The notes beneath the pieces are model-generated. The model was not told the origin of the DNA and made no database searches. It was given only the letters and a program-made list of their open reading frames with translations. Shown in pieces: positions 50,283 to 55,646 of a stretch of DNA of 64,000 nucleotides. Position numbers and translations under genes: made by a program. Every line of letters starts with the position of its first letter. Position 1 is the stretch's first letter. Source of the DNA: Patescibacteria group bacterium (GTDB taxonomy: Bacteria > Patescibacteriota > Gracilibacteria > Absconditabacterales > Absconditicoccaceae); NCBI GenBank assembly GCA_022705745.1, contig JAKJDW010000004.1:3614-67613 (forward strand). Reading direction: 5' to 3'.

Positions 50283-50528
50283 ATTTAAATTTATATTATA
50301 AATTATACGGTATTATTATAATAAAAAACATTATTTTTGTCAAAAAAATCGGGCTTTAATTTTGTGTTTAGTTTGACATTTGTATCAAAATAGTTTTTAA
50401 AAATAATTTTTGTAAATTTTAGGTCAATGAACTTAATTTATATTTTTTGCTTTTTTGTTTGCTTTTTTACTTTACATTATTATATAAAATACATAGAAAC
50501 TTTTACTTGACTTGTAATCAATTTTTTT

Positions 50529-51044
50529 ATGAGAACAAAGAAGCTCCGTACAAACACAGTAATCTTTTTGGTGGCAATACTATTTTCGCTTGTTTTGTTT
50601 TATTTTATGGAAAACCCTGTTTTTTTTTCTGCCAGTATTTTATCACTACAAGACGCTCAGACCATGATAGCAAATCATTGGGATTTAGCATACAAAAACG
50701 AGAAAAATGTGTTGGATGTTTTTGTTTCGGATACCATAAAAAATATAAACGAGCTTTCTGTTTCAATTATTTATGATGATCAAGAAGTTCAGATAGATTT
50801 AGATAATATCAAACAACAGTGTGATTATGAAATAGTATCTCAAATGGGATGAAGTTTGATTTTAAAATTTAAAAATTTTAATTGAAAATTTGATTATGGA
50901 CAGAGCCTATTTGAATTACCCTTTTGAGGTAAAGAACCATCAATATTGCTGAGTGAGTGAAGTGTTTTATTACTAAATTGAAATAATAAAACATTATCAA
51001 TATGATCGCTGAATCAAAACAAAGATTCACATCATGGATTTTAA
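50529..51044 (+). CDS. Signal-anchored hypothetical protein (171 aa)
   Basis: MRTKKLRTNTVIFLVAILFSLVLFYFMENPVFFSASILSLQDAQTMIANHWDLAYKNEKNVLDVFVSDTIKNINELSVSIIYDDQEVQIDLDNIKQQCDYEIVSQMGGSLILKFKNFNGKFDYGQSLFELPFGG.... Confidence 0.55.
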
Positions 51045-51062: not shown

Positions 51063-52694
51063 ATGAATAAATTTTATAAAAAATTAGCCGTTTGAGTGTT
51101 TATGTTTTTTTCAGCCCTAGTTCCATTGGTTTCTTTGGCAGAGGAGCCAGATTCTTTTTCTGTAAAGGTAGAACCAGACACTTTTTGAGTTTGACAGCCA
51201 GTAGATATTACAATAACAGCACTCAAAAATGGTGAAATATTAAAAGATTATATTTGAGATGTTTTGTTTGAAATAAATTGATTGTTGCCGGATGATTATG
51301 TTGTTCCTAGTATGGGATTTTATTCTTTTTTACCCCAAGATCAGTGAACAAAGACCTTTTCAAAATGATTAGAAATTAAAAAAGCAGGTACATATCAAAT
51401 AAAAGTATCTGATGTTACGGATTTAAATTACGAATTTCACTGAACAGCGACGGTTGTTGTATGAAATGCTAGTTCAGATTCGAGCTTGAAACAAATAAAC
51501 ATAACTTCTCCTATAGATTCTTCTATAGAAAAAAAATCTACTATAAATATAATTTGATCTAGCTTTGATTTAAGGAACTCACCGATAGATGTTTATTTAA
51601 ATGATATCTTAGTTACCAGTTGACAAACAGATTCAATGTGAAATTTTAATGTATATGTTTGAAATTTAAACTCTGGACCAAACACTATTCAAATAAAAGC
51701 TGTAAATATAAATAATGTTTTATTGTGAGAATCTAATGTGGTGACAGTAACCTATCAACCCCCATTTGATTGAGTGTTTAATTCCATAGAAATAATACCT
51801 TCTTGAGTCTTAAAGGAATGAGATAAAGTTACATTTACTGTTTCTGCTGTAGATGAAGTAAGCTCAGCTCAGATGATATTTGATGATGGCACCAGCTATC
51901 CTTTGGATCTTCTTTCTCCAGGAATTTTTAAAAAAGATATAATTATGACAGATATTTTGGGTAATAAAAATATTTCTGTTGTTTTGATGTATGCATGAAT
52001 ACCGAGAAACTACGACAATGTTGCAAGTATTTTTGTGAAAGAAAACAAGGGTGTTGGGAATGTAAGATTTGTTTCTACTTGAGTGGATGGGACATCAGTA
52101 ATAGTTTCTTGGGATTCTAGATGACATTTTCCTAAATATAGAGTTTTTTATGGTACTGACCAAAATAACTTACAAAAAACGGTAGATATAAACGCTACTG
52201 GAGTTTTGATAGAAAATTTGCAGACTGATACAACTTATTATTTCCAAATTTCTCCTTTGGATGAATTGTCTAATATATCATGAGACCCTTCAAGTATTGT
52301 AGAATATAATCCACAAAAAGTTAAAGCTTCTTGTATTGTTCAGTGAATAGTGGTAAAATCTGAAAAAATATGAGATAAATATTTTTTGGTATGGGATGAG
52401 GTAAAAAATGCCACTAAGTACGAAATATATAGATCAGATTGGGAAGATATGTCAGATAAAAAGTTGGTTTGAGAAACGACAGAAGCTAGTTTTGAGTATT
52501 TTTTTGATAAATATGCAGAAAAAGATCAGTATGCATATTATCAAGTGCAAGCAATTTGTTCTGATGGAACTAGTGTTCTCATAGACCAAGCACAAAAAGT
52601 TCAAGTTTGACCGTTTGAAGATACCTTACTGATTATTATAGTTAGTTTGTTTTTGTATGCAGTATATAAATTATATAGGACTCAAAAATATTAA
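51063..52694 (+). CDS. Surface protein (543 aa): signal peptide, Ig/FN3-like repeats, C-terminal TM anchor
   Basis: MNKFYKKLAVGVFMFFSALVPLVSLAEEPDSFSVKVEPDTFGVGQPVDITITALKNGE...VIVSWDSRGHFPKYRVFYGTDQNNLQKTVDINATGVLIENLQTDTTYYFQISPLDELSN (FN3-like) ...KYEIYRSDWEDMSDKKLVGETTEASFEY...LLIIIVSLFLYAVYKLYRTQKY. Confidence 0.7.
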
Positions 52695-52751: not shown

Positions 52752-55646
52752 ATGTCTATGTTTCCAAAAAAATATATAAATAAAAATAAAAACATACAAA
52801 GATCATCTTTTCCCTCATCAAAATTTATTTATTCAAGAGCTTTGTCTGCTGATCAAAAGGTTCATCCTGGAGCTCTGTTTTTAATTTTTATGAAAGACTA
52901 TATTTCTAAAATGAGCTTATGGGGTTCTGATGGGCTTGATTTTGATATAAACTTTGCTTTGTCATCAAATTGGTATTCCAAATTAAATAGAAATAATGTT
53001 AATTTAAAACAATTACAATTAGATCTTAAAAAACAAGTGAAGCAGAACATAAAATTTTTGGAAAAACTTGGATTTTCTTTTTTTATAAACGAAAATCATT
53101 TTGTTGTAGATGAAAAATTTTATATTTTTCTTAGAGAAGTTTTTGTTAATTTATATAAAGATTGAAAAATTCATTTAGAAAAAAAAGTAGTTTCACGAAG
53201 CAAAGAATTACAGACAAATGTATTGAAGACCAATCTGTTTATTAAAAAAAAGAAAAAAAAGGAATTTGTTATTAAATATTTTATAGAATCTAAATGAGTT
53301 TCTATTAGTGTTCCTACGAAAAATCTCAAAACTATTTTTGCAGATGTGGCTGTAGCTGTAAATCCACAAGATAAAAGATATAAAAAATTGATATGACAAA
53401 ATGTAATTATTCCAATAATAAATAAAAACATACCTATCATATGAGATGATAGTGTGGTTTCTTTTGAGTGAACTTGAGTGGTTAGAATTACACCATGACA
53501 TGATGAATATGGTCTTGAAATTGCACAAAAACACAATTTACCAACAAATATATATGCAATAGATGTTGATGGAAATTTTACTAAACATGTTGGAGATTTT
53601 GTTGGTAAACCTGTGGATGTTTTTATTGAAAATGTTGAAACTTATATAAATGATATATGAAATTTAGAACAGATAAATGAAACGGAAGAAGAGCTTATGT
53701 ATTGTGCTAAATCTGGGGAAGAACTATATAAAATTACTATGGATCAGTGGGGTATTAAATATGATTACTCTTTAGATTTTTTGCTTCAAAATTTTGAGAC
53801 AAAAGATATTACAATAAAGTGATTTGATGTAGAAAACCACATTTTGGATTATCTCAAAGATTTAAATTTTGTTAATATTTCCAACAAATCTGCAAAGGGA
53901 ACCTTAATACCGGTTTTGTATTCTGAAAAATGACAAAAATATTTGATAAATGATGATGTTTTGGTAGAGCAGTATAAAATTGCAAAGTCCAGAAAAGATC
54001 TCACACTAACTGCTGTAATACTCAATTTAGTTTTGGATAATCAATTAAATGATGTTTTTAGCATAGAGGAGCTTGTTGATGTTTTGTTTTCTTTTGATTT
54101 TTCTGGTGGCGTCAGCAAGCTTTCAAAATATATAGATATTTATGAAAATACTGAAAGATCTAGTTTAAAAAACTGACTGAAAGGCATTAAAAGGCTTTTG
54201 TGAAAAATAGAAAGAGATTCTGAAAAAATAATGATTCTTTTGGAACTTTTAGGAGACAGTTTTGCAATAAAGTCTGATTGAGAACGCTTTAGTTTGGATT
54301 TTTCTGCTATTTTTTGATCTCAAGAACCATTGGTTTTGCAAAAACAAGATAGTTTTAATAAAGATTTTTTGGATACTGTATGGTTGTTGTTTAAAAATAA
54401 CCTTTGAAAAAGTATGGAGGGATATTCTGGTATAAAAAACTTGTGAAATATATTTATTTGAACAAAAGATGATAAAGAATTTTTTGTAAATTTGTTACTA
54501 CTGTGATTGGATTATTCCAAAACACTATTTTTTTCAGATTCGCTATTTATTCCTTATTTGACTGACCAAGAATCAAATATTATTACAAATTACAACTCTA
54601 AATTTTTAACAAAAGAACTTTCTGGAATACTTGATTTGTTCAATTCAGACTTGCTAAGATTACTTTTGTTGTTATGACAAAAAGAAAACAACAAAGTCAT
54701 ATTGGATACTAATAATATTGAATATATACATTTTATGTTGAATAAAGTTTGGAATGCATACAGATATGTTTACAACAACTACATTAATTGAATTTCAAAA
54801 ATAAACATTAAAGAGCTTTTTAATTTGATAGAACAGGACATAAGTGATTATGATAACTGGATTTTGCATTGACTCAAATCTCTGCTAGAAGAATTAAAAA
54901 ACAAAAATAAAAACATATTGGATTTTGGGTCTAAAATTTTAAAATTTATTATCAATGATCTTTGTGAAAATTATTTGGAGTCTACTAAAATTTATGAGTA
55001 TGAGAGTACTCCGCATGTAGCTTTGTTTTCTTTTATCGTTTCTTTGGAGATTTTAAGACCATTGATGCCGTTATTTATGCAGGAAATAGAAAAGCTATTT
55101 TTTAACAAGCTTAAAATATCGAATTTTGATATAAGCACTATATGAGATTTTAATTTGAAAGAAAAAAATTATAGAATGAATATTTTTATGGATATTGTAG
55201 ATAAGCTCAAAAAAATAAAACAAAATTTATGAGTTAAAAAACATGAAACAGTAGATGTGTTCGTTCAAGCGAATTTGGAGTTTATAAATTTTTTATCAGA
55301 AAGAGAGGATCTATTGGAAGCCTTGTTAAACATTAGAAATATAGTTTATGTTAAAGATTATGAAAAAACACCATCAGATTATGAAATGGATAATGTAATT
55401 GATATAAATATTTGAGCCAAAAGTGTTTCAGAACAGATTGGAGTAACTAAAAATGTGTTGATGGAAATGGAAGAAGATTTAAAAAACAAACAAGAATATT
55501 TACAACATATGAAATCTTTGATAAGCTCCATTCTTTCAACAGCATCTATGGAAATTATAGAAAAGAAAAAACAAGATATTCAAAATTTACAAAAAGAAGT
55601 GGAGGAACTGGAATTTAAAATTAATAAAATGAAGATAAAAGGATAA
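52752..55646 (+). CDS. Valyl-tRNA synthetase homolog with degenerate HIGH and KMSKS signature motifs
   Basis: 964 aa. ValRS-like editing (CP1) block [66 protein letters not shown]. Blocks FVNLYKDG, NKVWNAYRYV and a C-terminal coiled coil are also present. HIGH reads VHPGAL (about 52861), DWCISRQ.WWGH.IP reads NFVNISNKSAKGTLIP, and the KMSKS position reads YNSKFLTK (about 54590). Confidence 0.75.

Follow-up and report, generated by a model that had tools for sequence, protein, structure and literature searches.

Introduction

Pseudo-enzymes resembling aminoacyl-tRNA synthetases, HisZ among them, are derived from synthetases and kept for a role other than charging (PMC9437257, PMC5388404). LeuRS-I of the Sulfolobaceae does not aminoacylate, binds tRNA and matters for growth; it still makes leucyl-adenylate, and the damaged part of the protein is its CP1, the disrupted editing domain (PMC9437257). 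LeuRS2 of the Halobacteria shows much reduced aminoacylation with its tRNA affinity retained (PMC4005665, PMC9437257), and ThrRS-ed of S. solfataricus is an active deacylase that complements an editing-less ThrRS (PMC11295145). Valyl-tRNA synthetase (ValRS) has been described among the most stable synthetases (PMC5388404), and a review of synthetase-like pseudo-enzymes names no ValRS case (PMC9437257). Our own literature search, incomplete in coverage, found neither a published ValRS paralog in SR1/CPR nor a comparable dead ValRS.

The window analysed here is a stretch of 64,000 nucleotides from a genome of the ultra-small SR1 (Absconditabacterales) bacteria, and it contains the following gene:

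52752-55646 (+): pseudo-ValRS gene, a full-length native bacterial-type valS of 964 aa, predicted to be catalytically dead (domain, profile, alignment, model)

The gene belongs to a real, old and widespread family of pseudo-ValRSs across SR1 (Absconditabacterales). Its product, hereafter the dead ValRS, would work most like LeuRS-I and LeuRS2, by a mechanism that is predicted. In the manner of these two proteins it coexists with a working synthetase and is kept by selection, and tRNA binding is predicted for it from conservation. With LeuRS-I it shares the condition of a full-length second class Ia synthetase beside a working one; it is unlike LeuRS-I in that the activation motifs are gone, CP1 is the best-kept part, and the gene is bacterial, valine-specific in origin and a displaced native one. 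LeuRS2 is likewise a coexisting homolog, but keeps low activity, whereas in the dead ValRS the signatures are wholly lost. HisZ, a paralog of a class II catalytic domain, has no anticodon domain; the dead ValRS keeps its tRNA-facing domains. Direct descent, domain order, predicted fold and anticodon-helix residues link it to the type-1 ValRS of T. thermophilus (1GAX/1IVS), from which it differs by the erosion of HIGH, DHAG, ISRQ, DTWFSS and KMSKS, the loss of the editing Asp and the coexistence with a working ValRS.

Reading frame, genetic code and profile matches

The host genome (G000) measures 1.06 Mb, with 29% GC and a completeness of 94%. The frame 52752-55646 (+) gives 964 open codons only with TGA read as Gly. 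CGA and CGG also stand for Trp in the Absconditabacteria code (PMC8629427). This reading alters residue 149 alone (R to W) in the dead ValRS, and nine CGA/CGG codons in the host's other valS give Trp, including the W of the ISR motif. Since homologs open with the same short N-terminal motif, the start codon was considered correct, and a wrong start or frame that would cut the catalytic core, a concern of the preliminary description of this DNA, was not found.

Pfam models matched the class I core and the anticodon-binding domain, with a weak match to the editing domain. The best NCBIfam match was bacterial ValRS (PRK05729). Scores lay below the curated cut-offs of active bacterial ValRS (NF004349/TIGR00422) at 271 vs 704 and 229 vs 612 bits, whereas an intact ValRS of the same family reached 1028 bits on the bacterial ValRS profile. 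The protein also falls outside the archaeal-type ValRS (NF009687; 156 bits vs a cut-off of 738). The preliminary description had aligned the 964-aa frame with ValRS by eye, and this colinearity was borne out by profile, alignment and predicted fold; residues 240-254 form the CP1 block, 665-672 the anticodon helix and 893-963 the C-terminal helical hairpin, in keeping with that description.

No T-box or other Rfam leader was found at either valS of the host at gathering score, and a promoter scan was at chance level. Both tRNA-Val genes of the host look ordinary. Part of the dead gene is contained in 18 metatranscriptome runs; in the four examined the contigs were shallow, with even coverage across both genes and spacers. 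A scan of named genomes returned three weakly matching loci (27-31% identity) in other phyla.

Two other genes of the host genome were observed in passing. The PF01195 match of the peptidyl-tRNA hydrolase (G000:C7:20133-20762, +) is split in two inside a single frame of 223 aa, which suggests that about 50 codons, absent from relatives, have been inserted. An IleRS-like ORF (G000:C11:55538-59761, +) is unusually long at 1407 aa from stop to stop; several genomes of the class Gracilibacteria have IleRS-like frames of 1230-1480 aa, possibly through domain fusion.

Erosion of the catalytic and editing motifs

Motif columns were read from an alignment of the dead ValRS with 30 intact ValRSs. The degenerate segments were:

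52836-52877 (+): eroded HIGH region, residues 29-42; retains H38 and G40 but neither the second His nor the Pro-Pro-Asn segment of the valine pocket (alignment)
53469-53513 (+): remodelled editing pocket, residues 240-254; G242 and P248 invariant, R245 for K270 (46/53), G254 for the catalytic D279 (alignment)
53871-53912 (+): eroded ISRQ segment, residues 374-387 (alignment)
54579-54608 (+): eroded KMSKS loop, about residues 610-619; N615 for the second Lys (alignment)

The HIGH position reads H38-P-G-A, its first His and Gly being kept and its second His replaced by A41; ISRQ has N and K for its Arg and Gln, and KMSKS has N615 for its second Lys. All 30 intact ValRSs carry the second His of HIGH and the second Lys of KMSKS, and no intact motif was found at shifted positions in this alignment. 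The erosion of HIGH, ISRQ and KMSKS noticed in the preliminary description was thus confirmed. For DHAG the claim held in part: the motif matches in neither alignment, but its column is ambiguous (residue 60 or about 70). The Trp of DTWFSS is also lost. The editing site, whose damage had been missed, has G254 for D279 of T. thermophilus, N191 for R216 and R245 for K270. D279 is the Asp that binds the amino group of the substrate in the ValRS editing site.

A set of 53 dead copies showed the same losses. Hardly any of them retains the second His of HIGH, the Arg of ISRQ, the Trp of DTWFSS or the second Lys of KMSKS; D279 is kept in four and lost in 49 (kept in 30/30 intact ValRSs), and 46 have Arg at K270. 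This K270R change is close to fixation (66/75) among the window's genus and relatives, where T214, T219, T272, H275 and D276 are kept. Genera g24 and g13 have lost T214, T219, H275 and D276 and relaxed K581 and C646, the CP1 His-Asp being among the relaxed residues, with the gene still under selection. We consider it almost certain that the 964-aa protein is dead as a synthetase. A database ValRS (P0140) with Tyr for the second HIGH His and a changed KMSKS was also observed, possibly at an early stage of erosion.

The replacement motifs are themselves conserved within the window's genus, where the Rossmann halves have a dN/dS of about 0.07-0.3, as would be expected of a Rossmann pocket rebuilt for another ligand or reaction. 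Between genera, though, the replacement residues differ completely, so that there is no shared new active site, and a rebuilt pocket is very unlikely. These genus-specific replacements, together with a HIGH-like motif retained in the dead copy of G015, indicate that the erosion may have run in parallel.

The working ValRS and its repeated replacement

A ValRS that is extraordinarily divergent and still working, one of the two options of the preliminary description, would agree with the colinearity, the full fold and the kept first His and Gly of HIGH. Its score of 271 bits against the cut-off of 704 and the erosion of the motifs in a different way in each genus speak against it, as does the presence of an intact ValRS. 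The search of the full genome for a second, canonical valS, suggested at the same time, found on another contig an archaeal-type ValRS of 807 aa (G000:C1:6962-9385; 949 bits vs a cut-off of 738), whose HIGH, ISR, KMSKS-type and editing motifs are intact. Because the genome carries this complete enzyme, the divergent-enzyme option was rejected as extremely improbable.

An intact second ValRS is present in nearly all genomes with a dead copy, the exceptions being incomplete assemblies such as G014 (73% complete). Where no second ValRS was found in a family member, the native enzyme is mostly intact; three genomes carry both an intact native and an archaeal-type ValRS. The working ValRSs of the dead-copy carriers fall into at least four lineages in the tree: two archaeal-type clades, a foreign bacterial type of 881-882 aa (the 882-aa form in genus g24 and part of g29) and an Absconditabacterales type of 987 aa (g65). 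The active gene has therefore been replaced repeatedly while the dead gene stayed. Two of the four lineages are full-length bacterial types, and the PF10458 arm was scored in the 881-aa type; the function of the dead copy is thus not tied to one partner. A complement for the missing coiled-coil arm of the archaeal-type ValRS was rejected as a general explanation, as the dead copy persists beside full-length bacterial-type partners.

valS moves often in Absconditabacterales. Working valS genes of the foreign bacterial type (882 aa) and of the transferred Absconditabacterales type (987 aa) were recorded at L061, L184-L189 and L145-L155; the G031 copy of the 882-aa gene has 21 in-frame TGA codons and is therefore adapted to the host code. 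At L055/L033 (G011:C172:1801-7294) the gene immediately upstream of an intact native valS is an archaeal-type valS, an arrangement that may be a snapshot from before erosion. G024 (L038 and L077) has a native ValRS with HIGH and KMSKS-type motifs beside an archaeal-type ValRS in the same genome, and in this native enzyme, which has a long branch, early changes are seen at R216 (His), D223 (His) and K270 (Thr).

Origin, distribution and genomic context

The comparison of orthologs in related genomes verified the same degeneration by motif in 55 of 141 Absconditabacterales genomes; by genus membership and profile score the dead form is estimated to occur in about 90 of the 141. Two features bear on its origin:

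51063-52694 (+): gene for a fibronectin-III-domain protein, upstream of the dead valS; marks the ancestral locus (domain match, neighbourhood)
53931-54326 (+): Absconditabacterales-specific helical insertion, about residues 394-525, also in the family's intact ValRSs; marks native origin (alignment)

The insertion, of roughly 130 residues, is typical of the family's intact ValRSs. Within the ValRSs of the family the dead copies group as a single clade with a support of 100 (IQ-TREE, 19 genomes; FastTree, 53 genomes), long branches being a caveat of these trees. In the RpoB tree 19/19 carriers fall in one clade of 22 genomes, whose other members, G023, G024 and G026, have an intact native ValRS; the dead-gene clade broadly tracks the RpoB tree, and the subgroups match. 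Of the 18 dead-copy loci examined, 16 have the fibronectin-III gene directly upstream, and G023 has it upstream of its intact valS; hence it marks the ancestral locus of the clade. The insertion, the nesting, the common locus and the match with RpoB show that the dead gene is the native valS, inherited vertically, and no duplicate. The 'non-catalytic paralog' of the preliminary description was accordingly right as to catalysis, but the gene is the original valS and not a new copy. The degeneration is essentially one evolutionary event in Absconditabacterales, with few independent pairs with a second ValRS.

No neighbouring genes pointing to a pathway were found at the 18 dead-copy loci. Throughout the clade valS is preceded by a conserved block made up of the fibronectin-III gene and a gene for a 205-aa protein (50427-51044, +), and this block adjoins a pilin/PilT cluster.

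An apparently independent case was found in G049, a genome of another family of the class with the standard code, in which a 1017-aa ValRS without HIGH or KMSKS stands beside an archaeal-type enzyme (L060). It is a singleton, without close relatives in the protein database.

L085:1889-4942 (G049:C47) (-): dead ValRS of G049, with D279 replaced by Glu and a long Lys/Ala-rich N-terminal extension (alignment)

Selection and predicted fold

The dead ValRS is kept under purifying selection. Full-length members measure 897-1013 aa, and full-length open frames occur in about 15 genera with genomes of roughly 1 Mb. Calculated by a counting method, with some pairs near saturation, dN/dS of the dead gene is 0.13-0.29 in the window's genus (working gene: 0.05-0.13), and six other genera gave 0.04-0.25; values for the working enzyme are lower by a factor of about two to four. 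The long branches and the selection relaxed relative to the working enzyme would suit a slowly decaying pseudogene without function, but a dN/dS of 0.04-0.29 even between close species, the full-length frames in all these genera, the domain-specific conservation and the lack of frame breaks or truncation leave almost no room for it.

AlphaFold, with an input alignment that included intact homologs, predicted a complete ValRS fold (pLDDT 86). The top Foldseek match of the model was 1GAX (E 5e-36), and structural comparison with VIA gave a Z of 25.6 over 742 residues (rmsd 6.0). The model contains the class Ia fold with CP1, the anticodon bundle and the coiled-coil arm:

55428-55640 (+): C-terminal coiled-coil hairpin, residues 893-927 and 933-963; fold kept, sequence below a PF10458 match (model, profile)

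Conserved domains and putative function

The best-conserved parts of the protein were:

53256-53684 (+): CP1 (editing-fold) domain, residues 169-311, the best-conserved domain; 1.4 A to T. thermophilus CP1 (1wk9) over 141 residues (model)
53361-53387 (+): basic CP1 helix, residues 204-212 (D207, K208, R209, K211), conserved across the dead clade (conservation)
54729-55217 (+): anticodon-binding helix bundle (PF08264), residues 660-822 (Pfam, alignment)

Of the columns conserved at 90% or more in intact ValRSs, the retained fraction was 0.81 in CP1, 0.59 in the anticodon bundle, 52% in the SC fold and 0.25-0.28 in the Rossmann halves, in a set weighted towards the window's genus. The anticodon bundle keeps K665, W667, N668, R671 and Y672 (K581, Y583, N584, R587 and F588 in T. 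thermophilus) as well as C738, Y741, E743 and K746 (C646, Y649, E651 and K654). In the more genus-balanced set of 53 genomes W583, N584, G267 and P273 are invariant, position 587 is always R or K, and K654 is kept in 52/53; many of the invariant Gly, Pro and Trp residues may be structural. CP1 carries many conserved basic residues in this set, and beyond the basic helix K181, N224, K286, F291, N294, I302 and N304 are strongly conserved. K581, N584, R587, C646 and E651, which we take to be tRNA contacts in ValRS from the 1GAX/1IVS structures, are all present in the 964-aa protein and partly relaxed in g24 and g13. Judged by sequence conservation, the best-kept parts, the CP1 surface and the anticodon helix, appear to face the tRNA.

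ValRS holds tRNA only with the anticodon domain and CP1 together (PMC11295145). In the ValRS complex tRNA is gripped by the anticodon helix and CP1, and since these are the surfaces that the dead ValRS retains, a non-catalytic tRNA clamp would be the simplest function; tRNA binding fits the conservation pattern, and a role in binding tRNA or other RNA seems somewhat probable. The native bacterial-type ValRS has lost its ATP- and valine-activation signatures and its editing Asp, valylation having passed to a horizontally acquired ValRS. The dead ValRS has stayed at the same locus, full length, vertically inherited and under purifying selection, through several further swaps of the working enzyme. 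For its function the following is proposed. Folded, as predicted, as a whole ValRS, it would act as a non-catalytic tRNA-binding protein, the anticodon helix clamping tRNA (tRNA-Val first) and CP1 holding the tRNA 3' end as in the editing-state complex of ValRS. With D279 gone and Arg at K270, the pocket may, speculatively, disfavour the charged amino group of an aminoacyl moiety. This loss and gain would favour an uncharged 3' end and therefore suggest protection or sensing: mostly uncharged tRNA might be held, protected or sensed, neither charged nor hydrolysed. Strict specificity for tRNA-Val is not expected to be universal, because g24 and g13 relax K581, C646 and the CP1 His-Asp.

The same CP1 surface and the helical domains might instead serve a protein scaffold or adaptor that keeps a tRNA-independent moonlighting interaction of the ancestral ValRS. 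The whole fold, dead Rossmann domain included, is predicted to be retained, six CP1 residues (K181, K286, F291, N294, I302, N304) are more conserved in dead than in intact copies, and anticodon residues are relaxed in some genera. On the other hand, the invariant N584 and the R/K at 587 lie on the anticodon-reading face, and no partner gene is co-located specifically with the dead form, so that we regard a scaffold as rather unlikely.

Editing raises the other alternative to a tRNA clamp. ThrRS-ed, a non-charging partner with editing-type and anticodon-binding domains, is a precedent for a protein of this composition (PMC11295145), and by analogy the anticodon domain of a trans-acting deacylase would select the tRNA while the remodelled CP1 (K270R, D279G/S, D276 kept) hydrolysed a non-standard acyl-tRNA, for example one that is N-blocked or acidic. 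That no domain is better kept than CP1, and that editing residues are kept together with K270R in the window's genus and relatives, would accord with such an activity. Unlike ThrRS-ed, though, the dead ValRS lacks the editing Asp and has a Rossmann fold, and the working ValRSs keep intact editing motifs. With D279 lost clade-wide and T214, T219, H275 and D276 lost together in g24 and g13, where selection continues, it has no intact hydrolytic editing site of the kind expected of a trans-editing factor. Editing in trans of the ordinary kind, as envisaged in the preliminary description, is for these reasons unlikely. Peptidyl-tRNA hydrolase (Pth) was found in 58/61 genomes, so that there is no gap to fill; a replacement for this enzyme was likewise rejected. 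g24 and g13 rule out a remodelled trans-hydrolase as the shared function, which could still apply in some lineages; as a general account we hold it to be improbable.

Implications

Roughly two thirds of the sampled species of the order, with genomes of about 1 Mb, retain a 2.9-kb dead synthetase, and in these genomes, which shed most dispensable genes, the dead copy is kept more faithfully than the working ValRS. At least one database entry names a dead copy valyl-tRNA synthetase, which makes valS unsafe as a phylogenetic or annotation marker in SR1. Tentatively, bacterial ValRS may have a second, near-indispensable, non-catalytic function that becomes visible when a foreign ValRS takes over charging; this would explain the independent recurrence here and in G049, although we think it doubtful. 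Candidates for such a function are, for example, a clamp protecting or sensing uncharged tRNA-Val, or a hydrolase of non-standard acyl-tRNA in the remodelled CP1 pocket. The finding bears on the role of inactive synthetase duplicates such as LeuRS-I and LeuRS2, and ValRS, usually seen as a stable single-copy synthetase, here provides natural evidence for a separable second function; one family holds intact, partly eroded and fully dead forms, a graded series in which that function can be tested directly.
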